Part shown: positions 7-23,941 of the stretch, piece by piece
Layout: each line of letters begins with the position of its first letter
Numbering within the stretch: position 1 is the first letter of the stretch
Source: a virus
Taxonomy: Duplodnaviria > Caudoviricetes
Reading direction: 5' to 3' (one strand)
Virus record (IMG/VR): IMGVR_UViG_3300027744_000848
Coordinates: 1-42,569 of that record
DNA length: 42,569 nucleotides
Position numbers and translations under genes: made by a program
The notes under the pieces: model-generated
Seen by the model: the letters and a program-made list of their open reading frames with translations, nothing else
What the model was told of the DNA's origin: nothing
The model's database searches: none

Positions 7-177
7 TCAAGCAGTGCTAGAGATATATGTCTCAAAGACAGCCAGGGTTGAATTGTAACGGAACTGTCCGGCTGAATAAGCTGTCACACGATCTGCGGAT
101 GTACCTACAGCAGTGACGAACGAATTACCAACAACATGAAGGCCATTCTTGACCTTAAAATCTGCTTGCGTAGCCAT
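7..177 (-). CDS. Short ORF (56 aa) resembling the N-terminus of a fibre/structural protein; possibly prematurely terminated
   Basis: Not in the ORF track. Manual translation MATQADFKVKNGLHVVGNSFVTAVGTSADRVTAYSAGQFRYNSTLAVFETYISSTA*; purine-rich RBS (GGAAAGGGAAAG) and TATAAATA upstream. Confidence 0.65.
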   Translation of the reverse strand: MATQADFKVKNGLHVVGNSFVTAVGTSADRVTAYSAGQFRYNSTLAVFETYISSTA

Positions 178-208
178 CTTTCCCTTTCCAGATGCTTACT
201 ATGTAATG

Positions 209-216
209 TATTTATA
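209..216 (-). promoter_or_regulatory. T4-type late promoter TATAAATA
   Basis: Exact consensus, intergenic, 31 nt upstream of ATG at 177. Confidence 0.75.
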
Positions 217-222
217 TATTAT

Positions 223-3024
223 TTATCTATCAGGAAATGCTCTATCGGGTACTGTGAAGTTTCCTGTATATCTTGCTATGCCAGGTGTTATTCGTATCTC
301 ATCGAGACATCCATTGAACGGTTCTACATAAGATGCACCAGATCTTCTTGCAGCTATAGTTACTGTATCTGGTACCTGTAATGTATATGCGCTAGGTTGA
401 GTATTTGATCCTGCAGATGCACCGTTGACATAAAAAGTGAACACGCTATTAGCTCTCACAAGTGCAAGGTGATACCAATTATTTCGTTGAGGTGTTCCGT
501 AAGTGCCGTGCCATGAGGTAGTTGAAACTAAAGTGGCGTTTGCAGCTGTTCCTGCAGAACTAAATTGAGCACCGAATGTATTTCCGTTTTGCCAATACAT
601 TTCCCATGATGCATAGCTTGTAGTACCTGTATTCCAGGCATTGATGATTCTTCCTACCGAGTCGTTTCCTGCAGGATATGCCCAGCACTCTACAGTAAAA
701 TCTCTATTAGCCATATGATGATTATTGACGTTATATGGTATCTGTATATAATCCGAAGTGCCGCCGAATAATATAGATCCTGTATTGAATTTTTTGATAG
801 CAGTGCTTATTCTTGTATTGTAAAATACTTGAGCATTATTTTTTCCTGTGACATCTTTTATGCCGATCTCTTTAGCTTTCAATAAGAATTGAGTGCCCTC
901 GATGGGTTGTAATGGCCCTGCAGGTGGAGTGAAACTGCCCGTACCATATACAGGATTTCCTGTAGTTATTCTCACGTCTGACAGATATCCTGCCATAGGA
1001 AGAGTTAGAGTAGAGAACTGAATGCCTGTGGCGAGCGGACTAACCTGTGTATAGTCTGTATTATCTGGAGTAACAGTTGTTTCTAGTACCCCATTGACAT
1101 ACATTCTTAATACATAGTTGTTTCTGGATAAAGCAACATGATACCATTGGCCAATGACAGGGGTTGTTGTCGATGATACACGAATTGTGCCTGCAATTTG
1201 CCAGACAAAAAATCCAGTACTAGTCTTATAATATAATTGCCATCCTACGCTAGATGCCCATGATTCTACCATTAATCTATCACTGCCTAAAGTCTCAAAA
1301 TATACCCAGGTTTCTACACAAAAATCTCTGAGTCCAAATTGTGTAGCATTCTGATACTTGCCATCTCGCATGATCAGATATCTAGTGGCTGCATTGTTAT
1401 ATACGCTGCTACCTAAATTTGATGGCGCTGAATATGATTTAACAAATGGACTAAATGGCCGGACAGTAACATCACCCACTCTTGTCAGAGTTAGATTGTT
1501 TGTAGAATTATCTTTAACATAAGGATTTTGTAGAGTAAGCAATGTCGTATTTGTTATTGCCTCAAATTTTCTGACAGGCGGAGTAAAATTAACAGTATAG
1601 ACAGCAGTTCCTTTTACCACTCTAACATTAGAGATGAAACCAGCAAAATATCCTGTAGCAAAAGATCTTGAATCTCCTACCTGTCCTATAACTATATCTT
1701 GTGCGACCGAACCATAGTCATTTGCATCAGTATAGGTTGAACCTGCTTGTACTCCATTTACATAAAGTTTGGTTGATCCTGACGATCTTACCAATGCTAT
1801 ATGATACCATGTATTGAGAGAAGCAAGAGTGGTTGTAATTTGATTAGCGTTACTAACCATGTAAGCTAACGTTCCACTAGCTACAAATAATCTTGGTTTT
1901 ACTTGACTTGCTGCACCAACTTGTCTGAAATCTATAAAAGTACCATTATCATTGGTCCATGCTGTTGGATGTATCCAACATTCTACTGTAAAATCTCCTG
2001 TACCTAAAGCAAATCCTGCATTACTAGCAACAGTTAAATAATCTCCTGAACCATCAAAATAACCGCTGTATCCCGTCTGACTGTACGGTGAGAATGTTCC
2101 TTGTCCAAGAAAACCTACAGTCGTTACAGGGATCTTGTTCTGACTAACATCTATGTATGGCTGGCCGGATCCGCTTCCTGTGCTTCCATCGCTCGTATTG
2201 ATATCCATTGCACCAGAAGAAGTTCCGCCGGGAGGAAACGCTGATGATTGGTTGTATAAGAACGGCGAGAATGTCGGAAAAGCTTGTACGCCACCATTTA
2301 CTGTGATTGTGGTACCCAAAGCAGAATCTGCGGGACTTCCTATAGTTTTAGCTTTTAACAATAATACTGTATTAGTGATGACATTTAAAGGTTCTGTAGG
2401 AGGTGTAAAATCAGCAGTATAAACAGCAGAACCATTTACAACACGAACATTAGACATGTAACCCGTAAATTTACTAGATCCATTACCATTAGCGCCAACA
2501 TTTAATGTTGTCGCTTCATTGACTAACGTAATTGCAGCTGTATATACACCTGCAGAAACTCCATTTATATAACGTGTAAAATTATTTCCGCTTCTAACAT
2601 ATGCAACATGATTCCATTGGTTAAAGTTAACTGTTAATGTGGACTCTGAGTTATCTGACCAATTAACACCTGCTGTTGTAGCAACAAGCGTTCTAATAGT
2701 ACCTGTAGTAGACATTCTTATATCAAATGAACCTACAACAGATCCGGTTGCTACTTTGTTAATAAGAATTTGCTCAGCAGCTGTAGATGTTGGATATATC
2801 CACAGCTCTATCGTAAAAGCGTTTGACCCCAATTCGAAATTAGCACTATCAGGTGCAGTTAAATAACTGGTGCTACCATTAAAAAAATAACCGCCACCAC
2901 CTGCATAATCTATCCTAGGATAATTGGCAGCATCGATGTTTTCACCATGCAATAACATCGAAGTGTTTTTAAAATATGTATCTACTGGCTCGTACTTTGG
3001 GTTTGATCTTTTTGTGACAAACAT
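223..3024 (-). CDS. Multi-LamG/concanavalin A-like domain virion protein (4 domains), putative receptor-binding tip
   Basis: Four repeats of F(T/C)(I/V)ExW...W(Y/N)H(V/I/L)A..R......Y(V/I)NG...G(Y/F/C)(I/L/M)(S/D)..R(V/I); N-terminal LLHG motif; TGATG coupling to upstream gene. Confidence 0.85.
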   Translation of the reverse strand: MFVTKRSNPKYEPVDTYFKNTSMLLHGENIDAANYPRIDYAGGGGYFFNGSTSYLTAPDSANFELGSNAFTIELWIYPTSTAAEQILINKVATGSVVGSFDIRMSTTGTIRTLVATTAGVNWSDNSESTLTVNFNQWNHVAYVRSGNNFTRYINGVSAGVYTAAITLVNEATTLNVGANGNGSSKFTGYMSNVRVVNGSAVYTADFTPPTEPLNVITNTVLLLKAKTIGSPADSALGTTITVNGGVQAFPTFSPFLYNQSSAFPPGGTSSGAMDINTSDGSTGSGSGQPYIDVSQNKIPVTTVGFLGQGTFSPYSQTGYSGYFDGSGDYLTVASNAGFALGTGDFTVECWIHPTAWTNDNGTFIDFRQVGAASQVKPRLFVASGTLAYMVSNANQITTTLASLNTWYHIALVRSSGSTKLYVNGVQAGSTYTDANDYGSVAQDIVIGQVGDSRSFATGYFAGFISNVRVVKGTAVYTVNFTPPVRKFEAITNTTLLTLQNPYVKDNSTNNLTLTRVGDVTVRPFSPFVKSYSAPSNLGSSVYNNAATRYLIMRDGKYQNATQFGLRDFCVETWVYFETLGSDRLMVESWASSVGWQLYYKTSTGFFVWQIAGTIRVSSTTTPVIGQWYHVALSRNNYVLRMYVNGVLETTVTPDNTDYTQVSPLATGIQFSTLTLPMAGYLSDVRITTGNPVYGTGSFTPPAGPLQPIEGTQFLLKAKEIGIKDVTGKNNAQVFYNTRISTAIKKFNTGSILFGGTSDYIQIPYNVNNHHMANRDFTVECWAYPAGNDSVGRIINAWNTGTTSYASWEMYWQNGNTFGAQFSSAGTAANATLVSTTSWHGTYGTPQRNNWYHLALVRANSVFTFYVNGASAGSNTQPSAYTLQVPDTVTIAARRSGASYVEPFNGCLDEIRITPGIARYTGNFTVPDRAFPDR

Positions 3025-3761
3025 CAGTATGCCATTCCACCCAGCATTCCATACCAGGTTGATCCGTCAGAGACAAAAGATACAAGATCTTTCTTGCTAG
3101 CTGTTGCGGTCAATGTCGGAGTTATTCCTTCAGGCCATGTCACGCCATTCCATGTGACAGCATATCCGCCAGTTCCTGAACTGATGATCATCGTAAAGCT
3201 CTTGCCAGCAGAGACAGCTGGCATCGAGATAGTCGTCGTAGCATCCAATGTGATCAGTTGCATGGACCCGTTATTGAGATCTACTGTATAAGTAGCACCG
3301 ATAGCAGTATTCGTATATGATTGTTCTTTATAATTCAAGAATGTCGTGTTGGAAATATAGGAATTGTTTATGTTTGCAACCGATATAGTATTAGAGAATG
3401 TGACGGCATTAGCAAATGTCACCGTGCTATTATATGTCGCAGTCCCGTTATATGTTGATGTATTATTGAATGTTATAGCGTTGCTCACAGCAATCGTGCT
3501 GTAGTTCAATAGCGTACTGAATGAGCTCCAGCTTACGTTTGTCGTGCTGCCGCCGGATATCAGCAACTGACCTGCTGTGCCTTGGCTGTTATTAGCAAGT
3601 ATGTATGTGAGATTTGAATTTCCCGTGACATTGAGATTGACTGTATTGGTCGATGCAGCAGTCGCAAACCCGTTAGATACAGTATTAGCAAAAGATACAT
3701 TCTTTGCAGATGTCGATGTTACAATAGTTCCTAGCGATGCAAGATTCCTTGAATTTGACAT
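3024..3761 (-). CDS. Ser/Thr/Asn-rich fibre connector protein
   Basis: C-terminal ~200 aa closely paralogous to C-terminus of 7031..9820 (YKEQSY...VDLN.G...GKSFT..IS.G.GGY.V.WNGVT...KKD..SF.SDGS.W). Confidence 0.75.
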   Translation of the reverse strand: MSNSRNLASLGTIVTSTSAKNVSFANTVSNGFATAASTNTVNLNVTGNSNLTYILANNSQGTAGQLLISGGSTTNVSWSSFSTLLNYSTIAVSNAITFNNTSTYNGTATYNSTVTFANAVTFSNTISVANINNSYISNTTFLNYKEQSYTNTAIGATYTVDLNNGSMQLITLDATTTISMPAVSAGKSFTMIISSGTGGYAVTWNGVTWPEGITPTLTATASKKDLVSFVSDGSTWYGMLGGMAY

Positions 3762-3762
3762 T

Positions 3763-4722
3763 TTAGATACCCACCGCTACTCTGTAAATCTTGACATTAT
3801 TATTGGGATTGGTTGGCGTTCCCATCACGAACAAGCTAGAACCAGAAACGCTGGCATCAAAAGACATCAGAGAATAGCTTGAATACACAGCTCCGTATTC
3901 TGTGATGAAAGCAGTCGTCCCGTCATGCAACACCAATAGTTCGCATAGATGATATAGATTGTTTGATGTATCTGTGATCTGCATCATGTATTTTGCTGAT
4001 CTGTACAATGATATATCAAGAACATCCAGAGATGCCTGATTGGTCGATGTTGTCGTGACCAGACCTACCGTCTCAAATATCACAGATCCTATAGTAACAG
4101 ATGGGACGGATGCTATCGATATTGAAGGAGCAGTTATCACAGCAGAAGAATATGCTGTTATTTCTACGACATCATCAAGATACAATGCTGATGTAAATGT
4201 GATAGAGCTTCCGTTTGCGGCTGTATAATCGACACCCGAAACTTGTTTGACACCGTTGATGAATACAGAGAGAGAACCCACAGTATAAGATAGAGTAGCC
4301 GCATTGTTATCAGCACCTGAAACGACTGTCTGTGCAGCAGCGGCAGTGAAGTAATAGTTCGTGAAAGATGTAGGTGAGCTATACGTATTGTATGTGCTAG
4401 GTGTTCTAACTTCTACCTTGACGCCGTTATCAATCGCAGCTGTAAATGTAAGTGTTGTCCCAGAGATGCTGTAAGCAGATGTTGGAAGCTGACCCAATCC
4501 AGAAACAAACACAATCGAGTTATTTGTCGTGCTAGATTGCGATATCGTAAACTGTGTATTAGAACCGTTGCCCGTGAACGTATCTGTAAAATTGGTAACA
4601 GATGATGTTGTCGTTCCGCCAGGTGCGACTGTCCATGAGGTGCCACTCCATGTCCATGTCTTATTGTTTAATGAATAGTTTTGTCCAACTGTCGGTGAAG
4701 TAGGAAAATTTAAATCAGCCAT
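3763..4722 (-). CDS. Fibre/branching structural protein
   Basis: N-terminal MADLNFPTSP..W.W...W motif, two small beta domains (GNGSNTQFT..Y.ISGTTLTF; V.INGVKQ..GVDYT), C-terminal YRSAKY..HDG..EYG domain typical of T4-like fibre proteins. Confidence 0.75.
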   Translation of the reverse strand: MADLNFPTSPTVGQNYSLNNKTWTWSGTSWTVAPGGTTTSSVTNFTDTFTGNGSNTQFTISQSSTTNNSIVFVSGLGQLPTSAYSISGTTLTFTAAIDNGVKVEVRTPSTYNTYSSPTSFTNYYFTAAAAQTVVSGADNNAATLSYTVGSLSVFINGVKQVSGVDYTAANGSSITFTSALYLDDVVEITAYSSAVITAPSISIASVPSVTIGSVIFETVGLVTTTSTNQASLDVLDISLYRSAKYMMQITDTSNNLYHLCELLVLHDGTTAFITEYGAVYSSYSLMSFDASVSGSSLFVMGTPTNPNNNVKIYRVAVGI

Positions 4723-4750
4723 TTATATGTTTACCATCATGGGTTTTAAG

Positions 4751-4758: not shown

Positions 4759-4760
4759 CG

Positions 4761-7031
4761 TTATCTGTCCGGATGTTGTCTTATGGGAGGTGTGAATGCT
4801 GCTGTATATCTAGCAAGCCCTTTTGTGATACGTAAATCATCTATGTATCCAGATACGGCAGAGCCGGCGCCAAGACCAATTTGTAAACCACTTTCTACAT
4901 AGTTAGTAGTTACTGATCCGTTACCTAGTAAAACTCCGTTTTTAAAAATATAAGCTATACCGCTGCTTCTAGTGATTGCATAATGATTCCAAGAGCCAGT
5001 AGTTTCCGTAGAAACTGCTGCCAGATCATCTGCTACATTATATCTTGATAAAGCTATCTTATTAGAAATTATATAAATGCTCAATCCTGTTGTTCCTGAT
5101 GTAACAGTGTGAAGAACATTGCCAGGTATTGTACCGCTCACTGCATTCCAATATGCCCAAAATTCAATAGTAAAGTTACCTGTGCCCATCCTAAAAAAAT
5201 CATTTGTTGGTGAGCTTAAATAATCCGTTGTTCCATTAAAGAACATGCTGGTTCCGCCAAATTTGCTTACTGTAGAACTAAGTTGAGCTGATCCGACTGT
5301 GATTAAATTGTTCTTTTGTGTGCTATCGATAATTCCAGCATTGGTTGAACTGATGAGAAATTGTGTGTTTGGTGGGTATGCAGCAATATAATTTGAATTG
5401 GACGTGAATGGGTATAGAGGCAAATAACCAATAGAGCTAGTATTTGAATTATTTCTATTATAATCAAAATATGAAGTTGTATTATACGCTGCATTATATT
5501 TGGTAATCTTAAAATCTGACAAATAACCTGAGTAATAAGTCAAGCTAGTATTTCCGTTCGTCGATCTTCTGTATCCTATAGTCAAACCGACAGCACTGTT
5601 TCCGGTCGGAAATCCCGTGACTTGATTTAAATTATTGACCTGGCCGGTTGCTGCAAATGCTAATTTTACATAATTCCAGGAATTATATTTTATATACTGG
5701 GTGTTTAAAGAATTTATTCGTAAAGCAGGATCTCCTGCATTATAGGTGTCTTTTATGGCCTGTGATGAACCTCCGGATACAGTATTACTTGAAGTATTAG
5801 ACCATTGAAAATACACCTCCGCCATGTTCTGACCTGAAGAAGTAAACGGCGATATGTACATCAACATGCCGCCGGGTCCTCCGGTATTGCCGACTGCCGA
5901 ATATGTGTTTGCATATGTATCAAATATCACTTGATTGCCGGTATTTGAAGTGGGGTGTATCCAAAATTCTATTGCAAAAAATTCAGTCGAAAAATAAAAA
6001 CTGTTTGATGCTGATGTGGTCAAATAATCAGTAGACCCGTTAAAATACACACTGCCGCCATTCCTTGCTTTGGCATATGCGCTAGTGGGTGCAAACGGCA
6101 CAAAGTTTGTGATTTTTGGAGTGCCACGCACACCAATGCCATTGGTGCCAGGGTACGAATTCGTAACGAGATCTGCATTATGCACATCTTTAAATCGGCT
6201 AGAACTACATGCAAGAAGAGACACTCCTCCTGTTCCTGGAGTTTGTTTCCACACATCTCCTCCAATACTGGGATATTGATATTGAGGTAGTGGGACCGTA
6301 GAAGGTGTGAAATTGGCGGTGTATAATGCTTTTCTTTTTGTTATTCTTAAATTGGAAATGTATCCGGGAAAAACATTGGTACCGTCTGGTCTTGCTCCTA
6401 TTGTAGGCGGGTCGGCATTTCCGTTAGCAGAATTAGTAACACCCGTTTGGGTTTCTTTTAGGACGCCATTGATAAAAGTGCGTACTGTTGTGCCTGATCT
6501 GCTGATAGCAACGTGAGTCCATGTGTTCAATGATATGGCTAAATCAGCAACATCAGCACTATTAGATGTATATATCTGCCAGACCAAACGGTTATTGGTT
6601 CTAATATAGAACGCATAGGCATTAGGATTCGGACTTGCCCAATGCATAAATATCATTTTGTCAGCGCCGTTATCGCTAGTTTGATATATCCATGCTTCTA
6701 TCGTAAAATCACCGTTGGTATCAGAGGCGCTGCCAGCTCCAAATGACAGTCCCCCGTAAGCTGGCGAGTTTACATCACTTACTGGTGTTACTATTAAATA
6801 ATCAGTTGTTCCATTAAATAAAACGCTCCAACCTGTAGAAGCATACGGAGAGAATGTACCTTGTGCCGGATTTCCGATTTTAGTGATAGTATTATACCCG
6901 CTACTATCTAAAAATACGCTATTATTAGATCCAGTCGTCCCATCACCATGCAACAGTAATACATTGCTGTTAAAGTTGGCATCTCTGGGTTGATTAGCAA
7001 AAGGAGCACCGGTTGATTTCGTGACAAACAT
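4761..7031 (-). CDS. Multi-LamG/concanavalin A-like domain virion protein (3 domains), putative receptor-binding tip
   Basis: DFTIEAW..WTHVAISRSG..FING, FAIEFWIHP, FTIEFW..WNHYA..GYIDDLRITKGLARY motifs; paralog of 223..3024 with the same MFVTK start. Confidence 0.85.
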   Translation of the reverse strand: MFVTKSTGAPFANQPRDANFNSNVLLLHGDGTTGSNNSVFLDSSGYNTITKIGNPAQGTFSPYASTGWSVLFNGTTDYLIVTPVSDVNSPAYGGLSFGAGSASDTNGDFTIEAWIYQTSDNGADKMIFMHWASPNPNAYAFYIRTNNRLVWQIYTSNSADVADLAISLNTWTHVAISRSGTTVRTFINGVLKETQTGVTNSANGNADPPTIGARPDGTNVFPGYISNLRITKRKALYTANFTPSTVPLPQYQYPSIGGDVWKQTPGTGGVSLLACSSSRFKDVHNADLVTNSYPGTNGIGVRGTPKITNFVPFAPTSAYAKARNGGSVYFNGSTDYLTTSASNSFYFSTEFFAIEFWIHPTSNTGNQVIFDTYANTYSAVGNTGGPGGMLMYISPFTSSGQNMAEVYFQWSNTSSNTVSGGSSQAIKDTYNAGDPALRINSLNTQYIKYNSWNYVKLAFAATGQVNNLNQVTGFPTGNSAVGLTIGYRRSTNGNTSLTYYSGYLSDFKITKYNAAYNTTSYFDYNRNNSNTSSIGYLPLYPFTSNSNYIAAYPPNTQFLISSTNAGIIDSTQKNNLITVGSAQLSSTVSKFGGTSMFFNGTTDYLSSPTNDFFRMGTGNFTIEFWAYWNAVSGTIPGNVLHTVTSGTTGLSIYIISNKIALSRYNVADDLAAVSTETTGSWNHYAITRSSGIAYIFKNGVLLGNGSVTTNYVESGLQIGLGAGSAVSGYIDDLRITKGLARYTAAFTPPIRQHPDR

Positions 7032-9846: not shown

Positions 9847-9854
9847 TATTTATT
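9847..9854 (-). promoter_or_regulatory. Near-consensus late promoter AATAAATA
   Basis: 7/8 match, overlapping upstream stop, same relative position as exact copies elsewhere. Confidence 0.5.
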
Positions 9855-12031: not shown

Positions 12032-12039
12032 TATTTATT
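12032..12039 (-). promoter_or_regulatory. Near-consensus late promoter AATAAATA
   Basis: 7/8 match upstream of ATG at 12006. Confidence 0.5.
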
Positions 12040-12934: not shown

Positions 12935-13266
12935 TATGTGATCTCAGAACCAAATATTCCAAAAGATACATTAGATGTGCTATTGGCATACACGGATATA
13001 AAATCTCCGGCTGCAAGAGTTAATCCGATGCTCAATGCAACGCTGTCAGTTGCGGCAATAGGAGTCTCGTATGCGATATAATGTTTTTGTGCTAGCGTAT
13101 TTCCGCTAGGTACTGCTGCTACTCTAATTGCTCTTGTTAAACTATCAGGATTGCATATGTTGATCGTTGATATCACAGCACTCGTGCCGCCAGGAACAGT
13201 ATATACTGTGTTGGCTGTGTTCAATGCTGGTGCAACCTGACCTAATATTTTAAACGTGGTAGCCAT
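12934..13266 (-). CDS. Small (110 aa) adaptor-like virion protein
   Basis: MATTFKILGQ..YTVP..STINICN..HYIAY..FGSEIT; paralog of 15328..15657. Confidence 0.78.
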   Translation of the reverse strand: MATTFKILGQVAPALNTANTVYTVPGGTSAVISTINICNPDSLTRAIRVAAVPSGNTLAQKHYIAYETPIAATDSVALSIGLTLAAGDFISVYANSTSNVSFGIFGSEIT

Positions 13267-14046: not shown

Positions 14047-14397
14047 TTAAACAAGGACCCATTGCAGCGTTTGCTCATCCCAGACATGCATGCCGTCTGA
14101 TGGACAAGAAATAGGAGCTTCCCATGAGCAAGTGTCTTCATTTAATATCCAACTTTCGTATGGTTTTGGAAGCAAAAATGCATCTCTGCTAGGATCATAT
14201 ATATAACCTACTCCAGCAAAATTTTTTCTAAATGAACCACTATAACTAGTTTGAATCCATTCGCCGCCAAATGTATTTTTGCAAAATACTGAACCCAGTG
14301 ATTCCTGTTCCGCTCCATTCTCATCTAAAAGTACATTGTTATTAATAACAATAACCTGATGTACCACATTATTTTCTATTCTTGCAAAGTGTGCCAT
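14047..14397 (-). CDS. Conserved phage hypothetical protein associated with Gly-rich fibre genes
   Basis: MAHFA....V..VIV..W.QTSY...FRKNFAG.GY.YD...DAF..PKPY.SW motif; GAGGT RBS. Confidence 0.75.
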   Translation of the reverse strand: MAHFARIENNVVHQVIVINNNVLLDENGAEQESLGSVFCKNTFGGEWIQTSYSGSFRKNFAGVGYIYDPSRDAFLLPKPYESWILNEDTCSWEAPISCPSDGMHVWDEQTLQWVLV

Positions 14398-14405: not shown

Positions 14406-15326
14406 TCAAAATGTTATCGTGCCAGAACCTGTAAATGTAAATATTCGATTTCCGTTTGCTTGGGAATATGTAGGACTTCCTGTAGATGTAGCATTGGCAA
14501 AAGAAGTAGAGTATGAAAGAATTATCACACCAGATCCTCCTGAACCTCCAGAAGGAGTACCAGTGATACCACTGCCGCCTCCTCCTCCTCCTGTATTAAT
14601 TGCTGCATTAGCACCACGAGCGATACCGGTGCCTCCAGTAGCGGACGAAGTCACACCTCCTAGAGCACCTCCTCCTGCGGCTGTTTCGTTGGGAGTGGTT
14701 TTACCTGATGAAGAAGCGCCTGCGTTTCCTCCGCCTGCATAAGCTACACTTGTACCTGATATTGAACTAAATATGCCATTTCCGCCTCTACTAGAGGCGC
14801 TGTCAGTGGCATTTAATGCTGCTTCACCTGCACCACCACCTCCACCCCCCGTAAAGACTCCGAAAGTGGAGGTGTTTCCACCACTATGGCCTTGACCTGG
14901 AAACGGCACATGTGCCGACCACTGGTCTTCGCCAAGGCCTTGTCCTCCGCCAGATCCTCTAAATCCAGAAAACGATGAATTTGCCATGAGAATGCGGACT
15001 CCATAAACTCCCCCATAACCTCCTCCAAAAGCTATTATGTTATGAAATATAGAATTATCTCCCGAATTGCCCATCGAGGTCGTCCCTCCTCTCACAATTC
15101 CAGCTCCTCCTGCTCCTACAGTAATTGTATATTGATAATCAGTGTTAGCAATGATATTACCTGATACTACACCGCCGCCACCACCACCACCACCCGAAGT
15201 TCCCCCGCTACCCCCGCCACCAACAATTAAATATTCAACGGCAGGATTGGTAGCAGCTGCAGCTGCTACTACAGTAGAAGGACCCGAATATCTCAATGAT
15301 GTTTTTTTTGTATAGACGGTGATCAT
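14406..15326 (-). CDS. Glycine-rich adhesin-like protein (paralog 1)
   Basis: Closely paralogous to 9853..10824 at DNA and protein level. Confidence 0.8.
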   Translation of the reverse strand: MITVYTKKTSLRYSGPSTVVAAAAATNPAVEYLIVGGGGSGGTSGGGGGGGGVVSGNIIANTDYQYTITVGAGGAGIVRGGTTSMGNSGDNSIFHNIIAFGGGYGGVYGVRILMANSSFSGFRGSGGGQGLGEDQWSAHVPFPGQGHSGGNTSTFGVFTGGGGGGAGEAALNATDSASSRGGNGIFSSISGTSVAYAGGGNAGASSSGKTTPNETAAGGGALGGVTSSATGGTGIARGANAAINTGGGGGGSGITGTPSGGSGGSGVIILSYSTSFANATSTGSPTYSQANGNRIFTFTGSGTITF

Positions 15327-15327
15327 A

Positions 15328-15657
15328 TCAAGAGACTTCAGTTCCGAATAACGAGAATGTCAAGTTGGCTGATCCTGCATATACTGTGACAACATCAGTA
15401 TTTGCCAATGTCAATCCCAATGTCAATGCGATTGAGTCGTTTGATGGGACTGATGTGTCGAATGCGATGTAGTGCGAGTTATTGATAGCAGCATTTGCAA
15501 CTCTGATTGCAGCTCTGAAAGCTATGTTTGCGGTGCTTCTGTTGCATATGTTCAATGTAGACACGACAGCATAGCTACCAGAAGGCACTGCATATAATGT
15601 CTCATTAGTCGTAGCAGCAGCTGAAAGCTGACCCAATACTTTATATGTGGTAGCCAT
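15328..15657 (-). CDS. Small (109 aa) adaptor-like virion protein
   Basis: MATTYKVLGQ..YAVP..STLNICN..HYIAF..FGTEVS; AGGAAG RBS. Confidence 0.78.
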   Translation of the reverse strand: MATTYKVLGQLSAAATTNETLYAVPSGSYAVVSTLNICNRSTANIAFRAAIRVANAAINNSHYIAFDTSVPSNDSIALTLGLTLANTDVVTVYAGSANLTFSLFGTEVS

Positions 15658-15667: not shown

Positions 15668-17167
15668 TTACATTCCCGCTAATAAAAATTGATTGAATGG
15701 ATCCGCAGTAGGTGTGATCACACCCGCGCTAGGAGCAGCAGAAACCCATTGCGATGTATCACCATCATCGTAATATATGAATAAAGATCCGAGGTTTGTG
15801 TTCCACCAGACGTCACCGTTTGCAGGAGCAACCGGAGCAGTAGCAGATACATAGACTGATACACCTTGCGGTCCTGCTGATCCTGTATATCCGACTCCTT
15901 GCGATCCAACATACCCAGCTGATCCGGTATATCCCAAGTCACCTTTAGATCCCACATATCCAGTCGAACCCGTATATCCTGTATCACCAATATCACCCGT
16001 TCTTGCAAAGGTGATGATGATATCTAGATTGTTCGTAAAGTTGTTGGCAGATCCGTTTAGATAAGATGACGGGACAGCAAAGTAATTTGTGTAATGAGCA
16101 TGCGAACCTGTGATTGCATACAGCACGAAGTTAGCAGTATTTGCTTTTTCTGTGACAGTGAAATGTCCCTTGATAGCGGATGTAGAATCATCTATCGTCT
16201 GCAGAAATGTGTATATCGACTGAAAGTTGTCTGCATTTTCGCTGATATAAAGCGTATTTGCCAGAGTAAGATCTGTATTGCTTAATTTCAGATTGCCATT
16301 TGTCGGATCAGAATTGTTTGTGTTTGCATTGAAAGTGTAATCAAATGTAGCGCCGCCAAATGATCCTTGAGGTCCTTGCGAACCAACATATCCCAGGTCA
16401 CCTTTAGATCCCGTGTATCCAACAGATCCTGTAAATCCTACGCCTTGAGAACCAGTATAACCTAGATCACCTTGAGAACCCGCATATCCAACAGAACCTG
16501 CAAATCCGACACCCTGAGATCCTGTATATCCTAGATCACCTCGAGATCCTGTATATCCAACGGGCCCTATTTCACCAAGATCACCTTGTGAACCAGTATA
16601 GCCAGCATTTCCTTGTGATCCTACATACCCAACAGATCCATTATATCCGATGCTGCCATCAGAACCTGCAGATCCGGTATATCCCAAGTCACCTTTGGAT
16701 CCCGCATATCCGACAGAACCTGTAAATCCGACACCCTGAGATCCTGTATATCCTATGTCACCTCGAGATCCAACATATCCTACATCACCTTGAGATCCCA
16801 CATAACCAACAGATCCTGTGAAACCTGTTGTTCCGAAAGAACCAGTAAATCCCGTATCGCCTCTAGATCCTGTGTATCCTGCTGTACCAGGACCCCAGTA
16901 TACATCACTTCCGCTAGAATATAGGATCTGCCCAGAAGAACCGATAGAATTATTCGCGATGATAGCTTTTACTGCTAAGTTACCCGATATGTTTACGTTA
17001 GTATTATTAGCACCGATCTCAAACACGACTGATCCATTGCCGGAATACATGATTCCGTCAGTCATGTTTAATGCTAATTCGCCTGGATTTGGGAGGGTTG
17101 TGGTATTGGCCGCACGTCCTGATATGGAGGTACGTTTAATCTGAATTAAATTATTAGCCTGTGCCAT
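15668..17167 (-). CDS. Collagen-like fibre protein (499 aa)
   Basis: N-terminal IQIKRT..LPNPGELA domain, G-X-Y tracts, FGGATF..TFARTGD globular insert, AP..GDVWW..YYDDGDTSQWV knob, FLLAGM tail. Confidence 0.8.
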   Translation of the reverse strand: MAQANNLIQIKRTSISGRAANTTTLPNPGELALNMTDGIMYSGNGSVVFEIGANNTNVNISGNLAVKAIIANNSIGSSGQILYSSGSDVYWGPGTAGYTGSRGDTGFTGSFGTTGFTGSVGYVGSQGDVGYVGSRGDIGYTGSQGVGFTGSVGYAGSKGDLGYTGSAGSDGSIGYNGSVGYVGSQGNAGYTGSQGDLGEIGPVGYTGSRGDLGYTGSQGVGFAGSVGYAGSQGDLGYTGSQGVGFTGSVGYTGSKGDLGYVGSQGPQGSFGGATFDYTFNANTNNSDPTNGNLKLSNTDLTLANTLYISENADNFQSIYTFLQTIDDSTSAIKGHFTVTEKANTANFVLYAITGSHAHYTNYFAVPSSYLNGSANNFTNNLDIIITFARTGDIGDTGYTGSTGYVGSKGDLGYTGSAGYVGSQGVGYTGSAGPQGVSVYVSATAPVAPANGDVWWNTNLGSLFIYYDDGDTSQWVSAAPSAGVITPTADPFNQFLLAGM

Positions 17168-17209: not shown

Positions 17210-17428
17210 TTAAAATTCGGTAACGTCAGCGGTCTTCTTGGATTTAGTTTCAGCCTTATTTAAGGCCTTCTCTAATGATTTTTCTAACTCTTCTACTTTA
17301 GCAGTCAGCGATGTATTTATCCTCTCATAATATGTTATCTGAGCTGACTGAAGGATGGTTGCCTTAGTCAGCTCAGTAACAGAACTTACGAGTTTTTCTA
17401 CGTAGATATTAAAAACTTCTGCACTCAT
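17210..17428 (-). CDS. Small coiled-coil protein (72 aa; start reassigned to MSAEVF)
   Basis: AAGGA RBS upstream of ATG at 17428; heptad-like LTAKVEELEKSLEKAL. Confidence 0.7.
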   Translation of the reverse strand: MSAEVFNIYVEKLVSSVTELTKATILQSAQITYYERINTSLTAKVEELEKSLEKALNKAETKSKKTADVTEF

Positions 17429-17497: not shown

Positions 17498-19243
17498 TTA
17501 GAATGTACCGCCGTCTAGCCCGCCGTAGATCAATGTTGTGCTATCCGATACTTGTAGAAGTTGTCCTGCTGTTCCGATTGCTAGTTTAGCAAGCGTTGAG
17601 CCACTACCTGTAAGCAAATCACCAGCGCTGTATGTATTGAATCCAGTACCACCAGAAGTAGTAGCTAATGCTGTGCTTAGTGTTAATGAGTTGGCTTGTA
17701 GAGCTACTGTTAATGAATTTGTACCAGTTATATTCAATACAGTAGAGTTGGATATCAAAGCACCTGAATCCAAGTATGCTTTTAATGTTCCTTGTTGATA
17801 AGATGTATTTGCAGTATCAACAACAGTTGTCGGAGCAGTAGTTAGACCAAAGAACAATTTATAGACGCCATCAGAAGCATCTCTAAATAGACCAGTGTGC
17901 TCATGGCCGCCGCCATCATTATTATAATTACCATAGAAACCAATATCAAGCAGATCACTAACTGTATTATTGACAGCAAGCTGGATGAGTGAATCGTCTA
18001 CTGCATAATTGGTTACGTTAGCATAATACACATTGCCTGTGACGAATAAATCGCCGCCAACATTTAGATCATGAAAGAATGTACCCGTATTGGCAGTGAT
18101 ATTAGTATTGACAGTCAATCCACCCTGAAGCGTAATCGTAGAACCGCTTGCAGTCAAATGTACATTTCCTACTGATACATCTCTTGCGTATACTGTATCC
18201 CAGGAAAGTGCTGCTGTACCAAGATCTCTTGAGTTATTGGTGCTAGGAACAAGAGCAGACACAAAACGGCCGCCTACTGTTAGTTCATCAGTGGACGCAT
18301 CACCCAATACTGTATTGCCGTTAAGTGTCGTTACACCACTGACAGTGACAGTTGCAAGATGTGTGAGTGAACTGTTGACATGAACACCAGTGGAGTTACT
18401 GACTATGCCTGTCCCTGCTTGTACAGCAATCGTAGGAGTCGCACCTTCTGAGGAAGCAGATCCTGTGATACCATTGCCTGCAGTGATCTCAGCAACATAA
18501 TTACCTGTTGTCTTGGTACCAAGAGCAATACCATTGTCTTTAACTTGTAGAGCGCCGCCAGATACTTCAATCGAGACATTATCGACATTAGCGGAGAACG
18601 TGGGAGTCGATGTTTCGCCTGTACCGCCTGTGATCGTAATACCACCACCAGCTGTGACAGTGGATACATAATCACCAGTCGTATCAGTTCCGAGCGCTAT
18701 TGAATTATTCTCGATAGTGACAGTAAGTGTGGCATCACCCAAGTTATTGAATGTCACGTTACCGGAAGCATCTCCAGAAAGAGTCAGTTTTGGTGAACGG
18801 TTGATGGTCGTGACGACTAGATTGGATACAGTCGTCGTCTCACCAGTAAATACTAAGTTACCAGAAAGCGTTCTAGAATCTGTGTTCTGAACGAAGGCAG
18901 GTCCAGCAGCTGCTGTGCTGTTCCAATAAAGCTCACCCGAAGCATTGACCGAAAGTACTGCTCCGTCAGCTCCGACCGAATTATTTGCAGTTATGCTAAA
19001 GATAGTCGCATTAGCAACTTTGATTTTATCGATGAAGCTCGTGCTATTAGCAACAAGAGCTTGATTGGCAGTGAGCACACCAGGACTTCTACCACCAGCA
19101 ATAGGTGTTACTAGCCCAAAGTTACCGATGAATAGCGTATTACTGGTAGCTGACCAACCTAATTCACCATTTGCCAATGAAGCAGGTGTTGATGCGCTAG
19201 CAGAACGTTTAATTTGAATTAGATTTGGCGATTGAGCAACCAT
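17498..19243 (-). CDS. Fibre protein (581 aa, non-collagen)
   Basis: IQIKRS..LANGELG N-terminus, repeated IALGT.TTG.YV..TAG.GIT, HTGLFRDASDG domain, C-terminal DGGTF. Confidence 0.8.
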   Translation of the reverse strand: MVAQSPNLIQIKRSASASTPASLANGELGWSATSNTLFIGNFGLVTPIAGGRSPGVLTANQALVANSTSFIDKIKVANATIFSITANNSVGADGAVLSVNASGELYWNSTAAAGPAFVQNTDSRTLSGNLVFTGETTTVSNLVVTTINRSPKLTLSGDASGNVTFNNLGDATLTVTIENNSIALGTDTTGDYVSTVTAGGGITITGGTGETSTPTFSANVDNVSIEVSGGALQVKDNGIALGTKTTGNYVAEITAGNGITGSASSEGATPTIAVQAGTGIVSNSTGVHVNSSLTHLATVTVSGVTTLNGNTVLGDASTDELTVGGRFVSALVPSTNNSRDLGTAALSWDTVYARDVSVGNVHLTASGSTITLQGGLTVNTNITANTGTFFHDLNVGGDLFVTGNVYYANVTNYAVDDSLIQLAVNNTVSDLLDIGFYGNYNNDGGGHEHTGLFRDASDGVYKLFFGLTTAPTTVVDTANTSYQQGTLKAYLDSGALISNSTVLNITGTNSLTVALQANSLTLSTALATTSGGTGFNTYSAGDLLTGSGSTLAKLAIGTAGQLLQVSDSTTLIYGGLDGGTF

Positions 19244-19281
19244 TATTTTTCCCCTTTAAAAGATCTATCTGTTGTTGTTTG

Positions 19282-19289
19282 TATTTATA
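19282..19289 (-). promoter_or_regulatory. T4-type late promoter TATAAATA
   Basis: Exact consensus upstream of ATG at 19243. Confidence 0.75.
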
Positions 19290-19293
19290 AGAA

Positions 19294-19656
19294 TTAAAAT
19301 GTTCCTCCATCCATGGACGTATTAGATAATGCTGTATCTGATAAGCTCAATGGAAGAACTTGGTATTTGTCCAAGCTAGAAATATATGTTACGATGTGGC
19401 CGTTTGAGGGTGTGCCTTCGATGACATCATCCAATGTATCGAATCTGGTATTCCCCCAATATATACCAGTTCCGTTGGACAATAAAACCTGACCTGCGAC
19501 ACCGTTAGAGGTATTTGCAGTGAATGGTCCTGTGACGATCAGATTGTTAGCAGTCAGAGATTGGCGATTCCAGCGTGAACCATCCCACATCCAGGTCTTA
19601 CCCCCAGTGAATGCTGTATTGCCGACCTGCGGGTTGGGAGGAAAGTTTAATGCCAT
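19294..19656 (-). CDS. Small fibre connector (120 aa)
   Basis: MALNFPPNP..W.WDG.RW N-terminus, GQVLLSNG..YW motif, C-terminal DGGTF. Confidence 0.75.
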   Translation of the reverse strand: MALNFPPNPQVGNTAFTGGKTWMWDGSRWNRQSLTANNLIVTGPFTANTSNGVAGQVLLSNGTGIYWGNTRFDTLDDVIEGTPSNGHIVTYISSLDKYQVLPLSLSDTALSNTSMDGGTF

Positions 19657-19681
19657 CTATTAAAACACACCATTTTTTTAA

Positions 19682-19689
19682 TATTTATA
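19682..19689 (-). promoter_or_regulatory. T4-type late promoter TATAAATA
   Basis: Exact consensus upstream of ATG at 19656. Confidence 0.75.
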
Positions 19690-19702
19690 TGTTTGGTTTT
19701 CA

Positions 19703-22700
19703 TTAATATGACACCGATATCCATACAGTATTGCCATAATCACCCACATTAAGGCTCAATATTCCTGTGTCCGAATCTAACCAAAATGATCCGGAGTCAG
19801 AACTGGTCGGCACAACATTTCCGACATTGGCTTGTCCGGTTGCACCTTTCGATCCTGTGTATCCTATCGAACCCACATATCCGAGATCACCTTTTGATCC
19901 TGTGTAACCTAGATCGCCGATATCACCAGTCCTGGCAAATGTCACGACAACATTAGTGTTATTTGCAAATGCTGACGCTGATCCGCTGAGATAAGATATA
20001 GGAACATTAAAATATTGAGAATCTTGAACATGATTGCCGATGATAGCATACATCACATAGTTGTCATTATTTGCTATCTCAGTGATCGTAAAGTGACCTT
20101 TGATAGAAGATGTCGAGTCGTCGATGGTCTGCAAGAAAGGTTGTACATTAGCAGTCGCCTGATCTACATAGCTGATATACAATGTATTAGCATCGCTAAA
20201 TGTAGTATTGCTTAATCTTATCTCGCCATTAGCAGCTGCTGTAGGATCTGCTGTATTGCCATTGAAATAATATTCAAATGCAGCGCCGCCAAATGTTCCT
20301 GCAGGTCCTCGTGAACCTGTATATCCAAAAGATCCTGTATATCCTAAAGAACCTGTATAACCGATATCACCTTTAGACCCTACAAATCCAACAGAACCGT
20401 CATATCCAGCACCTGTTTCTCCAATATCACCCTTGGATCCTGTAAAACCGGATTCGCCAGATCCTCCAGAAGAACCAGTATATCCTACACCTCTAGATCC
20501 TGTGAATCCTATAGAGCCCCTTGATCCGTCAAATCCCACTGAACCTGTAAATCCTGCGCCAGTAGATCCTGTGAATCCCAACGATCCTATAGATCCTACA
20601 AAACCAGTATCACCCTGCGAACCTGCAAAACCTATTCCTATTGAACCGGTATAACCTAATTCACCCTGTGATCCTGTATAGCCAGCACCAGTAGATCCTG
20701 TATAACCAATATCTCCTAAAGAACCAGTGTATCCAGTATCACCCAATGATCCTGTATAGCCTATGCTACCTGTATAGCCTTCAGATCCGGTATAACCCAG
20801 ATCACCTTGAGATCCTACAAATCCGATATCACCTTTAGATCCTGTAAATCCTATAGATCCATCATATCCGCTACCAGTCGGACCCTGAGAACCTATAGAA
20901 CCTGCATACCCTGTATCTCCTTGATCACCGGCTCTTGCAAGAGTTAAAGCAGTAAGAGTATTATCACCGAGAACAGTATTAGCTCCAGCATCACCCGAAA
21001 GGAATGATATAGGAACAGTGGCATAAGATCCATTATCAGTTAACGAATCGATTATCATGAATGTGGCATAATTTAAATTATTGCCAGAAGCTGATATCTT
21101 AAAATGTCCTTTGATACCCGATGTGGAACTATCGATAATCAATAAAGAATTAAATACGAATTCAAATCGAAGATCACTTTTGTTGATGTACAAGAACGTA
21201 GAATTAGCAAGAGACGTATTGCTAAATCTTAAAGCACTTGTGCCAGGATCTGCATTCTGCGTGTTAGCACTATACAAATATAGAAAGGTTGTGCCTCCAA
21301 AAGCTCCTGGTTGTCCTTCATTGCCTTGAGATCCTGTGAATCCTACACCCTGAGATCCTGTATAACCGATAGAACCCGTATATCCCAGATCACCATAAGA
21401 TCCGGTATAACCCACAATACCCTGAGATCCTGTATAGCCAATAGAACCCGTATAACCAAGGTCTCCGTAAGATCCAGTATAGCCAATGGCACCTATCGAT
21501 CCAGTATAGCCTATCTCGCCTTGCGATCCGGAATATCCTATATCACCTAAAGATCCGGAGTAGCCAATCGGACCCTGTGATCCGGAAAATCCAAGATCAC
21601 CTCCAGATCCCACATAACCAGAATCACCAATAGATCCCGTAAATCCTAAATTACCTTGAGATCCTACAAAACCAGTATTGCCTTGTGATCCTGTATATCC
21701 GAGATCTCCTCTAGATCCTACAAATCCCAACGGTCCTATATTTCCCTGGATTCCTTGTTCACCTTGAGATCCAGTATATCCGATATCACCTTTAGATCCA
21801 GTATAACCTAACGATCCTGTGTAACCCAATGATCCAGCATATCCAGTATTGCCTAACGATCCTGTATATCCGATATCACCTTTAGATCCGGTATAACCTA
21901 ACGACCCCATGGATCCTGTATATCCAAGATCTCCTTGAGAGCCTACAAATCCCACAGAGCCCGTAAATCCTACAGAGCCTACAAATCCTACAGAACCAGT
22001 GAATCCAATAGATCCTGTGTATCCTATACTTCCTGTGAATCCTAACGAACCCGTATAACCAGTGTCGCCTCTAGAACCCACAAATCCCACAGACCCTGTA
22101 TATCCCGTATCACCCTTAGATCCAGTATATCCAAGATCGCCTCGAGATCCCACAAACCCAACAGAACCCGTGAATCCTATGCTTCCTGTAAATCCGATAT
22201 CACCTTTCGATCCTGTAAATCCTGTGTCACCTCGAGAACCCGTAAATCCCGTATCACCTTTTGATCCCGTAAATCCTACAGATCCGGTAAATCCTGTATC
22301 ACCCACGTCACCTGTTCTAGCAAATGTCAATATCACATTTGCATTATCGACAAAAGTTGTGGCTCCAGAAATGTATGCTATAGGAACATCAAAGAAGTTT
22401 GATGTGTAAGTATGAGATCCTATGATGCTAAATAATGTGAAACTGTCTGTATTGGCAGCACTCGTGATAGTGAACTGGCCTTTGATTGCTGAAGTAGAAT
22501 CATCAATCGTCTGCAAGAACGTAAAGGTTGATGTGAAGAATTTATCATTTTCATTGATGTACAGGTGTGTAGCAGATGCCAGCGATGTATTGCTAAATCT
22601 GACAAATCCATCACCAGGATTTGTATTTGCGGTAGAATCATCAAATCTATAGTCAAAAGCTGCACCACCAAATGCGCCGGTCGGACCGATAGACCCTACA

Positions 22701-23941
22701 AATCCCGTATCACCTTTGGATCCTGTAAATCCTAAAGATCCTGTATATCCCGTATCGCCTCTAGATCCGGTATAACCCACAGAGCCATCATAACCCGTTG
22801 CTCCACTCGATCCTCTAAAACCTTCAGATCCCCTATATCCAGTCTCACCTTGAGTTATACCGAAGTATCTAACTTCGATCTCAGAATTTAAGAATGGAAC
22901 ATAATTTAGTGTTAATGTCGTTCCAGAAACAGTATAATCTGTTTCTGGCGTCTCTATGATACCATTAACAAATACCATGATATGTGCGGCATTAGAAGTA
23001 GAATCTAATAATGTATACTGTGTATTGCTTCCGTTTCCTGTATATCTTGAAAACTTATATGGGCGACCTACTTCACCCGCCGATCCAGCAAAACCAGCAC
23101 CCTGCGAACCAGTATAACCCAATGAGCCGGTATAACCTGTAGCACCGCCAGGATCACCTTTTGATCCCTGGTATCCGACAGATCCCTGATATCCAACAGA
23201 TCCTAGATATCCAACGGACCCTACAGATCCTTGATATCCTACAGTTCCTAAGGATCCTTGATATCCAGGAGATCCTTGTATCGCATCAAAATATCTTACT
23301 TCTATGATTGAAGTGTTGACAGGGGCGGTAGAGAATGTTATAATAGTATTAGTTACTGTATAATCAGAATCAGGTGTTTCGACTAGACCATTGACAAACA
23401 CAAGGATATGGTTTGTATTTGCTACTGATTCTGCTAATGTAAATTGAGTATTGCTACCATTGGCAGTATATACAGATATCCTTGAAGGTTTACCTACACC
23501 ACCCAATGATCCTGAAAATCCAATGGAACCTGTATAGCCCAATGAACCGACAGAACCCGTATATCCTGTATCGCCGCCCGGCGTTCCAGCAGCACCTTGA
23601 GAACCTTGATATCCAGACGATCCAAAGAATCCCACTGAACCTAAGAAACCTGCAGAACCTTGAAATCCCGCAGATCCTGTAAACCCTGAAGAACCTGTAA
23701 AACCTACAGATCCATCGTATCCATCAGAAACGATATAACGAACTTCTATGTCAAAATTAGCTAATGGAGCAGAGGCAAAGATGATCTCAGTTCCACTAAT
23801 TGTATAATCAACACCAGGAACTTGCAGAAGTCCGTTAACAGAAACTAATATATTATTAGCTTGTGTTACTGTCTGTGTTAATGTATAATTAGTATTAGAA
23901 CCATTTCCGGTGTTCTTTTGACTATAGAAGATCAGAGCCAT
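19703..23941 (-). CDS. Large collagen-like fibre protein (1412 aa)
   Basis: Long G-X-Y tracts dominated by GYT/GFT/GFV-GSx, three NGSNT beta domains, three FGG..ARxGD globular inserts, C-terminal Trp-containing knob. Confidence 0.85.
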   Translation of the reverse strand: MALIFYSQKNTGNGSNTNYTLTQTVTQANNILVSVNGLLQVPGVDYTISGTEIIFASAPLANFDIEVRYIVSDGYDGSVGFTGSSGFTGSAGFQGSAGFLGSVGFFGSSGYQGSQGAAGTPGGDTGYTGSVGSLGYTGSIGFSGSLGGVGKPSRISVYTANGSNTQFTLAESVANTNHILVFVNGLVETPDSDYTVTNTIITFSTAPVNTSIIEVRYFDAIQGSPGYQGSLGTVGYQGSVGSVGYLGSVGYQGSVGYQGSKGDPGGATGYTGSLGYTGSQGAGFAGSAGEVGRPYKFSRYTGNGSNTQYTLLDSTSNAAHIMVFVNGIIETPETDYTVSGTTLTLNYVPFLNSEIEVRYFGITQGETGYRGSEGFRGSSGATGYDGSVGYTGSRGDTGYTGSLGFTGSKGDTGFVGSIGPTGAFGGAAFDYRFDDSTANTNPGDGFVRFSNTSLASATHLYINENDKFFTSTFTFLQTIDDSTSAIKGQFTITSAANTDSFTLFSIIGSHTYTSNFFDVPIAYISGATTFVDNANVILTFARTGDVGDTGFTGSVGFTGSKGDTGFTGSRGDTGFTGSKGDIGFTGSIGFTGSVGFVGSRGDLGYTGSKGDTGYTGSVGFVGSRGDTGYTGSLGFTGSIGYTGSIGFTGSVGFVGSVGFTGSVGFVGSQGDLGYTGSMGSLGYTGSKGDIGYTGSLGNTGYAGSLGYTGSLGYTGSKGDIGYTGSQGEQGIQGNIGPLGFVGSRGDLGYTGSQGNTGFVGSQGNLGFTGSIGDSGYVGSGGDLGFSGSQGPIGYSGSLGDIGYSGSQGEIGYTGSIGAIGYTGSYGDLGYTGSIGYTGSQGIVGYTGSYGDLGYTGSIGYTGSQGVGFTGSQGNEGQPGAFGGTTFLYLYSANTQNADPGTSALRFSNTSLANSTFLYINKSDLRFEFVFNSLLIIDSSTSGIKGHFKISASGNNLNYATFMIIDSLTDNGSYATVPISFLSGDAGANTVLGDNTLTALTLARAGDQGDTGYAGSIGSQGPTGSGYDGSIGFTGSKGDIGFVGSQGDLGYTGSEGYTGSIGYTGSLGDTGYTGSLGDIGYTGSTGAGYTGSQGELGYTGSIGIGFAGSQGDTGFVGSIGSLGFTGSTGAGFTGSVGFDGSRGSIGFTGSRGVGYTGSSGGSGESGFTGSKGDIGETGAGYDGSVGFVGSKGDIGYTGSLGYTGSFGYTGSRGPAGTFGGAAFEYYFNGNTADPTAAANGEIRLSNTTFSDANTLYISYVDQATANVQPFLQTIDDSTSSIKGHFTITEIANNDNYVMYAIIGNHVQDSQYFNVPISYLSGSASAFANNTNVVVTFARTGDIGDLGYTGSKGDLGYVGSIGYTGSKGATGQANVGNVVPTSSDSGSFWLDSDTGILSLNVGDYGNTVWISVSY

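Follow-up and report, generated by a model that had tools for sequence, protein, structure and literature searches.

Several systems have been described in which phage fibre proteins are joined through defined docking segments. In phage T4, the gp36 trimer docks onto the gp37 N-terminal region (PMC3004832). T4gp10-like branching domains with a conserved N-terminal peptide are described for KP32/K11/KP34, G7C, K1-5, CBA120 TSP2/TSP4 and PhiK64-1 (PMC6872550, PMC13352976). Such domain-peptide pairs have been modelled (PMC6872550) and proven by engineering, in which a branching domain from the same class worked although it was non-cognate (PMC13352976). The Klebsiella jumbo phage phiKp24 has hyperbranched fibres with primary, secondary and tertiary layers connected via docking sites (10.1101/2022.03.15.484430). 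In marine and freshwater phages, most genes of the hypervariable fibre regions carry only hypothetical annotations, and it is a standing question how so many of them yield one apparatus. Here we analyse such a region in a 42,569-nucleotide stretch of viral DNA (IMG/VR record IMGVR_UViG_3300027744_000848; the whole stretch is called the window below), in which putative sockets on fibre proteins are matched by putative plugs at the starts of other fibre proteins. We consider it probable that five socket and plug kinds, which pair strictly by gene order, act as orthogonal joints and would assemble about 18 proteins into a single branched fibre bearing five host-binding heads.

Paired terminal motifs in the window

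An original prediction, made from the sequence alone, had read the recurring ends of these genes as docking pairs. All the genes concerned lie on the minus strand and are named here by their start position. The NFP starts predicted for 19656, 14012 and 4722 (plugs at 19558-19656, 13902-14012 and 4621-4722) were confirmed, as were three knobs (19709-19837, 15722-15865 and 7940-8083), using translations and hidden Markov model (HMM) coordinates. A search of the phage's own genome with the knob profile returned the three knobs and a weak match on the NFP start of 14012. The FLLAGM and FLFGL stalks are indeed followed by MATT(Y/F)K adaptors and the LSMVFNI stalk by an MSNPNI adaptor; this rule had been read as one pair, and the pairing is real, but it consists of two pairs with two adaptor families. 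Both proteins said to end in DGGTF do so, but only one is directly followed by an IQIKR gene: the protein at 19243-17498 is followed first by a 72-amino-acid (aa) gene (17428-17210) and then by the IQIKR gene. The IQIKR starts lie at 19082-19228 and 16991-17167. Both TGATG overlaps between genes with SDGS(S/T)W(F/Y)G and MFVTK genes are present, but the motif is not the protein end as had been thought; it lies 8 residues before the C-terminus, inside a domain of about 95 aa (7034-7306 and 3027-3299).

The window contains six direct cognate adjacencies, a number reached in 0 of 200,000 gene-order shuffles (maximum 5) with motif classes that were defined with the window in view.

Pairing across viral loci

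IMG/VR was scanned for one side of each pair only. The SDGxW pattern gave at least 120 loci, the NFP start at least 136 stretches and IDGGTF-stop at least 121 loci, with 80 loci each having full flanks; for the adaptors, the best 80 of 530 confirmed matches to MATT and the best 80 of 570 to MAAPNI were taken. Scan estimates put the matching stored stretches at about 840 to 3,900 per pattern. The survey set of 540 viral loci, including four from two small scans (single-protein or two-sequence-alignment query, 2 loci each), yielded 4,705 adjacent gene pairs distinct by their terminal 20 residues; genes came from our own simple caller, and the window and T4 were left out. The IQIKR start class is designated MTD, FLLMG-type ends FLM, AMAIVFG-type ends AIVFG and the MAAPNI adaptor MAPN.

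In this set, DGGxF ends were followed by an MTD gene in 103 of 163 cases, FLM ends by a MATT adaptor in 58 of 70, AIVFG ends by a MAAPNI adaptor in 62 of 65, and SDGxW domains by an MF-starting gene in 94 of 125. Cross-pairs of the four C-terminal classes with MTD, MATT or MAPN numbered 0; there were 4 with the common MF start and 2 of SDGW with NFP. Adjacency statistics over many genomes had been set beforehand as a test, and the pairs were strongly enriched, directional and mutually exclusive. Within the one-sided scans, FLM ends stood upstream of 57/73 MATT genes and AIVFG ends upstream of 55/58 MAPN genes, while MF followed 92/108 SDGW domains and MTD 89/138 DGG ends. A relaxed DGG motif was located directly upstream of 135 of 180 MTD genes versus 107 of 4,525 other pairs, and a further 11 DGG-MTD pairs (11/163) were bridged by one small gene. 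Loci fetched for another motif only gave the same picture for DGG-MTD (14/25, p 2e-20) and AIVFG-MAPN (5/6, p 1e-15).

The pairs do not follow particular protein families. With the motifs removed, the upstream bodies of the pairs formed 38, 29, 22, 19 and 46 single-linkage clusters (of 77, 47, 58, 60 and 54 proteins) and the cargo proteins 48, 36, 39, 43 and 23 clusters; each pair persists on 19-46 unrelated protein bodies. No MTD, MATT or MAPN domain inside a protein and no socket-plug fusion was found in the survey loci, and the one internal NFP match looks like a mis-called start. Sixteen proteins of less than 130 aa combine a plug and a socket, such as a 101-aa protein with NFP, knob and FLM end (L084:4625-4930), for which the ESM Atlas returned mostly unnamed viral clusters and, as a lead only, one Mtd_N cluster at 0.90.

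The adaptors also sort the heads. With patterns chosen by eye, a GG.I or G.W start was found after 41 of 71 MAAPNI adaptors versus 1 of 87 MATT adaptors, and an M[ASGTP][IVFL] start after 60 of 87 MATT versus 2 of 71 MAAPNI adaptors. A dock specific for LamG proteins was considered for the SDGxW-MF pair and rejected: by crude motif typing, 60 complete MF-starting heads comprised 22 Gly-rich, 16 LamG-like and 22 other proteins. Tip type is not fixed by the dock. In part of L007, L025, L026, L041, L042, L051, L057 and L076, a MATT subfamily starting MAxTxKAL/KQM follows IIMGAY or IMDIL ends, not FLLMG, and is possibly another exclusive adaptor pair.

The knob-NFP pair

Among 111 distinct NFP genes with both neighbours, a knob was found directly upstream of 46 and directly downstream of 9 (discordant cases 42 vs 5, p 2.5e-8); within three genes, the figures were 38/59 upstream versus 9/59 downstream. 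Knobs stood upstream of control anchors in 3/135 (the MTD genes), 5/76, 3/66 and 2/71 cases. In the 279 loci not chosen for NFP, 11 had both elements, 6 a knob only, 5 NFP only and 257 neither, and knob count per locus tracked NFP count (Spearman 0.70, n=60 loci), the window having three of each. Knobs are often internal and multiple: in locus L296, three of the four genes that come after a three-knob protein are NFP genes, and in the window knob-NFP pairs lie up to three genes apart. The same knob-then-NFP order is present in the cultured Prochlorococcus phage P-SSM2 (orf023-028) and Synechococcus phage S-H34. By profile comparison, knob and NFP are homologous (probability 88), and 35 of the 111 NFP proteins carry a knob of their own; knob and MTD are weakly related (probability 36). 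Since knob and NFP are homologous, their pairing looks like a paralogue-to-paralogue joint. Separately, the available part of PMC1079782 did not bear out a view of the P-SSM2 fibres as double or branched in micrographs.

Structure and homology of the proposed docking parts

The IQIKR start aligns to the T4 gp37 N-terminus over 46 columns (hhalign probability 97.7, E 1.5e-12); T4 gp36 ends DFGYY and T4 gp37 starts IQFKRS..LAEGEL. Both IQIKR starts of the window also match Mtd_N (PF18454) weakly (E 0.003 and 0.2; 17.9 and 12.1 bits), below the gathering cut-off of 26.3 bits, and are classed as Mtd_N-like only. Judged by sequence, the DGGxF-IQIKR pair is thus known in kind, matching the T4 gp36-gp37 joint.

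A model of the SDGxW domain (predicted local distance difference test, pLDDT, 90) matches an Acinetobacter tailspike, residues 79-180 of CBA120 TSP4, phage baseplate chains and T4 gp9 (Foldseek E 3e-4 to 0.2). VIA comparison, which covered the 117 Foldseek matches, gave moderate Z scores of 6.8-9.0 (root-mean-square deviation, rmsd, 2.3-3.3; 88-94 residues aligned) that fall to 3.3 after rank 11, with Z 7.6, rmsd 3.3 and 94 aligned for the TSP4 segment. We take that segment to be an XD domain and the baseplate chain 5iv5_AC to be gp10. The SDGxW domain is predicted to fold like the branching domains of T4 gp10 and CBA120 (gp10 D2/D3-like, XD). Weak matches to the same domain occur in Halorubrum tailed viruses (OP630575/OP630576) and a Rhodococcus phage (GU580940).

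The MATT adaptor was modelled as an eight-stranded jelly-roll (pLDDT 95) with generic best matches: nucleoplasmin HDT1 (Z 9.9), KHP40 cement (9.8) and HFTV1 turret (9.5). Neither adaptor family matched Pfam, and the PHROG match was phrog_1276, a family without assigned function; MAAPNI is a distant MATT paralogue (profile-comparison probability 86).

The docking interpretation gains independent support, since DGGxF-IQIKR is homologous to T4 gp36-gp37 and the SDGxW socket has a predicted gp10-like branching fold. Taken as a whole, the original prediction is partly supported.

Proposed fibre architecture and alternative explanations

The five pairs would make five joints. In the first, the knob of about 45 aa would take the NFP N-terminal domain and, because the knob is often internal, form a side branch. 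The second would be end to end, a DGGxF C-terminal peptide entering the Mtd_N/gp37-like N-terminal domain as in T4 gp36-gp37 and lengthening the stalk. In the third and fourth, hydrophobic C-terminal peptides would bind small jelly-roll adaptors, FLLMG the MATT and AMAIVFG the MAAPNI adaptor, and the opposite face of the adaptor may hold an exchangeable head with an adaptor-specific N-terminus. In the fifth, a C-terminal gp10-like domain would take a short MF N-terminal peptide and so mount an exchangeable head.

The predicted path runs from 23941 through 19656 and 19243 to 17167. There it would branch, with adaptor 15657 and head 15326 on one side and, via the knob, 14012 with adaptor 13266 and head 12934 on the other. 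Stalk 12006 would carry adaptor 11174 and head 10824; 9820 would carry LamG head 7031 and, via its knob, 4722; and 3761 would carry LamG head 3024. We infer the links 14012-12006, 12006-9820 and 4722-3761, together with binding, the trimeric state, presence in the virion and a particle anchor.

More broadly, we lean, with some reserve, towards the view that a small set of at least five, and perhaps seven or more, exclusive plug-socket pairs (the five above plus the adaptor-to-head and T7_tail-like links) is common to many kinds of aquatic phage, such that the branched architecture of the adsorption apparatus is readable from gene order and termini and rebuildable by swapping ends. If true, such a terminal-pair code would let connectivity be predicted from sequence, would explain how heads and stalks are shuffled while the particle stays intact, and would allow clear-cut tests in the cultured cyanophages P-SSM2 and S-H34; protein engineering, too, could make use of small orthogonal joints between trimers.

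Several findings weigh against a single coded fibre. The pairing evidence is all genomic, and neighbouring genes are co-inherited; the spread of each pair over many clusters of bodies lessens this effect without abolishing it. The FLM and AIVFG patterns were drawn up once scan results had been viewed, which inflates their sensitivity, not their exclusivity. Outside its own scan FLM-MATT was found in 1 of 3 cases (p 0.006), and SDGW-MF was not enriched (1/15, p 0.29) among diverged domains found incidentally; the MF plug would therefore be limited to a subfamily near the window's domain, with other partners for diverged domains. No strict partner stood upstream of 22/80 MATT genes and of 77/180 MTD genes, the MTD figure being 45/180 under the relaxed motif. 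For 65 of the 111 NFP genes the gene directly upstream carried no knob, and in 11 of 60 NFP loci none was detected anywhere. By sequence, none of the knob, NFP, MTD and adaptor profiles matched a solved structure; a PDB sequence search with adaptor, knob, NFP, gp10-like, MTD, T4 gp37 N-terminus and MAAPNI queries gave nothing significant (best 8y6v gp184, E 0.06). Finally, the N-termini of three stalks (12006, 9820 and 3761) belong to no plug class among the five.

These three unplugged starts favour an alternative in which the joints are real but belong to several independent fibres, on baseplate, neck or capsid, and not to one tree; that the top VIA match of the gp10-like fold is a capsid spike points the same way. 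In the window, however, the stalk preceding each of the three carries a T7_tail-like domain. Downstream of such domains SRxLA starts are enriched (7/17 vs 115/3,246; in a stricter set 4/12 vs 67/1,965), as are KIxxxxI starts, a pattern tuned by eye (7/58 vs 64/1,919); the candidate link is weak, and a sixth pair is a lead only. Because 17167 and 9820 carry two sockets each, there would be some branching in any case, and we regard several separate fibres as a tenable but rather doubtful account.

The motifs might instead be junction cassettes that recombination within the Gly repeats moves as DNA blocks, or ribosome-binding or translational-coupling signals, so that the proteins need not touch. 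Most pairs are adjacent, many junctions overlap (TGATG), and 42 of 58 FLM ends encode their Gly as GGA, so ribosome-binding-site pressure contributes at these ends, a further point against docking as the whole explanation. However, the motifs are kept as amino acids, with synonymous codons freely mixed at the other motif positions; DGG-MTD pairing holds at gaps up to 161 nt (26/39 for gaps of 41-250 nt) and through spacer genes, the window's knob-NFP pairs span intervening genes, and the T4 homologue is a physical joint, all of which makes this explanation improbable.

That knob, NFP and MTD are mere trimerisation or capping modules, co-occurring because such fibres cluster, would suit the homologies among them and the NFP proteins with their own knob, but is an unlikely reading given the strong upstream/downstream asymmetry, the near absence of MTD genes after knobs and the correlated knob and NFP counts.

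Genes of the cluster

The first gene of the branched fibre as proposed (19703..23941) encodes a 1412-aa collagen-like stalk with three T7_tail-like domains near its N-terminus and the first knob at its C-terminus. It is followed by a 120-aa connector with NFP plug and DGGTF end (19294..19656), a 581-aa stalk with Mtd_N/gp37-like IQIKR start and DGGTF end (17498..19243) and the 72-aa coiled-coil-like spacer gene (17210..17428). Similar small genes follow DGGxF stalks in many other loci, often ahead of the next IQIKR gene, and the 72-aa product is possibly an assembly chaperone; a gp57A-like role is unsupported, as aromatic residues are present and gp57A has none according to the available part of PMC3004832. 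The 499-aa stalk (15668..17167), with IQIKR start, knob and FLLAGM end, is the first predicted branch point. At three points the collagen-like repeat of the 1412-aa stalk is broken by an insert of about 110 aa (GGAxFxYxF...FARTGD), which also breaks the repeat of the 499-aa stalk at one point.

Downstream lie a 109-aa MATTYK adaptor, a predicted single jelly-roll (15328..15657), Gly-rich head 1 (14406..15326) and a 116-aa MAHFAR protein (phrog_7759; 14047..14397), which is frequent in such loci (30 of the first 83 sequences examined, mostly near Gly-rich heads). A 243-aa stalk with NFP plug, T7_tail-like domain (13371-13553) and FLFGL end (13281..14012) precedes a 110-aa adaptor with the N-terminal motif MATTFK (12934..13266) and Gly-rich head 2 (12038..12934), which overlaps the adaptor in TGATG manner. 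The 271-aa stalk 11191..12006 has a T7_tail-like domain (11260-11442), an N-terminus outside the five plug classes and the LSMVFNI end of the AMAIVFG class; it is followed by the 116-aa MSNPNI adaptor of the MAAPNI family, a distant MATT paralogue (10824..11174), and Gly-rich head 3 (9853..10824), whose N-terminus is of the GG.I / G.W kind that typically comes behind MAAPNI adaptors. All three Gly-rich heads match PF21722 (Gly_rich_2). For a T-even gp38-type adhesin, phmmer against PDB gave no gp38 match to head 2 at E<=0.1.

The second predicted branch point is the 929-aa stalk 7031..9820, with internal knob and C-terminal gp10-like domain; the 756-aa LamG head with MFVTK start (4761..7031) and a 319-aa connector (3763..4722) with NFP plug, two T7_tail-like domains and a C-terminal RSAKY domain come next. 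A 245-aa stalk starting MSNSRNLA and ending in a gp10-like domain (3024..3761) is followed by a 933-aa LamG head, also with MFVTK start (223..3024). At the contig end, a 56-aa open reading frame (ORF) starting MATQADFKVKN (7..177), which has 113 aa in the relative L084, is probably the next fibre-type gene. The RSAKY domain (3763-4065) and this start are a candidate further pair, and L084 has the same order. L084 (283-11200) and L085 are close relatives of the window and have the same modules in another arrangement.

Source and genomic setting

The window is a 42.6-kb virus-record fragment, 26% complete by CheckV. T4-type baseplate wedge genes (phrog_261, 219, 438 and 17744) adjoin the fibre region at 36.3-42.5 kb on the minus strand, and the 610-aa wedge protein shows 34-39% identity with its counterparts from Stenotrophomonas phage DLP6, Caulobacter phage Cr30, Pelagibacter phage HTVC008M and Sinorhizobium phage phiM12. 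They are followed by a Peptidase_S74-chaperone fibre, an LtfC-like gene, a plus-strand glycosyltransferase and the 19 minus-strand genes from 23941 to 223. The cluster represents the fibre genes of an uncultured T4-like lake phage.

At least half of the words of 11000-20000 were present in 15 of the 24 listed runs, all 15 being freshwater or lake metagenomes, and all 30 bins of 4200-24000 were covered by four runs, with no single piece across the whole stretch. Joins in assembled contigs with sides of less than 30 letters in repeats were disregarded, and contigs from RNA runs were not counted as transcription. The DNA of the window is real and recurs in freshwater and lake metagenomes.

The glycosyltransferase (24000-26756, plus strand; 918 aa, GT1/GT2), on the opposite strand within the fibre region, could act on Ser/Thr-rich fibres or on the host surface. 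The 108-aa LtfC-like gene (26953-27279, minus strand) lies after the S74 fibre. Because phrog_3304 matches both this gene and the knob of 9820, the family joins an LtfC-like domain to the knob and is a candidate route for fibre anchoring. A phrog_358 protein is split into three ORFs (36270, 33191 and 31296), the middle one (31314-33191, minus strand) having a Hint-like domain near its C-terminus with Pfam Hint/Vint matches below cut-off.

Comparison with known systems

The original prediction knew of no description of such a pairing grammar. For the knob-NFP pair, the two adaptor pairs and the multi-pair code we also found none in the literature searched, mostly open-access main texts, and no such code is described in the available parts of PMC12143355, 10.64898/2026.05.12.724579, 10.64898/2026.03.06.709160 and PMC1079782. 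The grammar is nevertheless not wholly undescribed, because joints of the same kind as two of its pairs are known.

The host recognition cluster of pelagimyophages and cyanomyophages (PMC7029224, PMC1079782) is likewise a hypervariable fibre and glycosyltransferase region downstream of baseplate genes, and in aquatic T4-like phages it likewise holds collagen-like fibre genes; in the parts available, these sources list fibre genes without connections. As in T4 gp36-gp37, an upstream end of the form D-x-G-x-aromatic (DFGYY in T4, DGGTF twice in the window) is matched by an IQ.KR start in a following gene, but the window would use this joint twice in series on collagen-like stalks and has four further pair types beside it; PHROG and Pfam scans of the window flagged no homologue of gp34 or gp35. 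The IQIKR starts resemble Mtd_N, but no tropism-switching head was seen in the window.

The SDGxW domain shares with T4gp10-like branching systems its predicted fold, a partner with a short conserved N-terminal peptide and exchangeable cargo. It differs in lying at the extreme C-terminus and not near an N-terminal anchor, in carrying LamG or Gly-rich proteins and not depolymerases, and in an MF peptide that is family-specific. Like phiKp24, the window has many fibre proteins that would be layered through docking sites; in the available part of 10.1101/2022.03.15.484430, however, the hierarchy comes from N-terminal lengths and gp10-like folds only, and exclusive sequence pairs readable from gene order are not described. 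To these systems the window adds a single cluster that holds all five pairs, a direct test of whether the pairs exclude one another, and the proposed knob-NFP branch joint.

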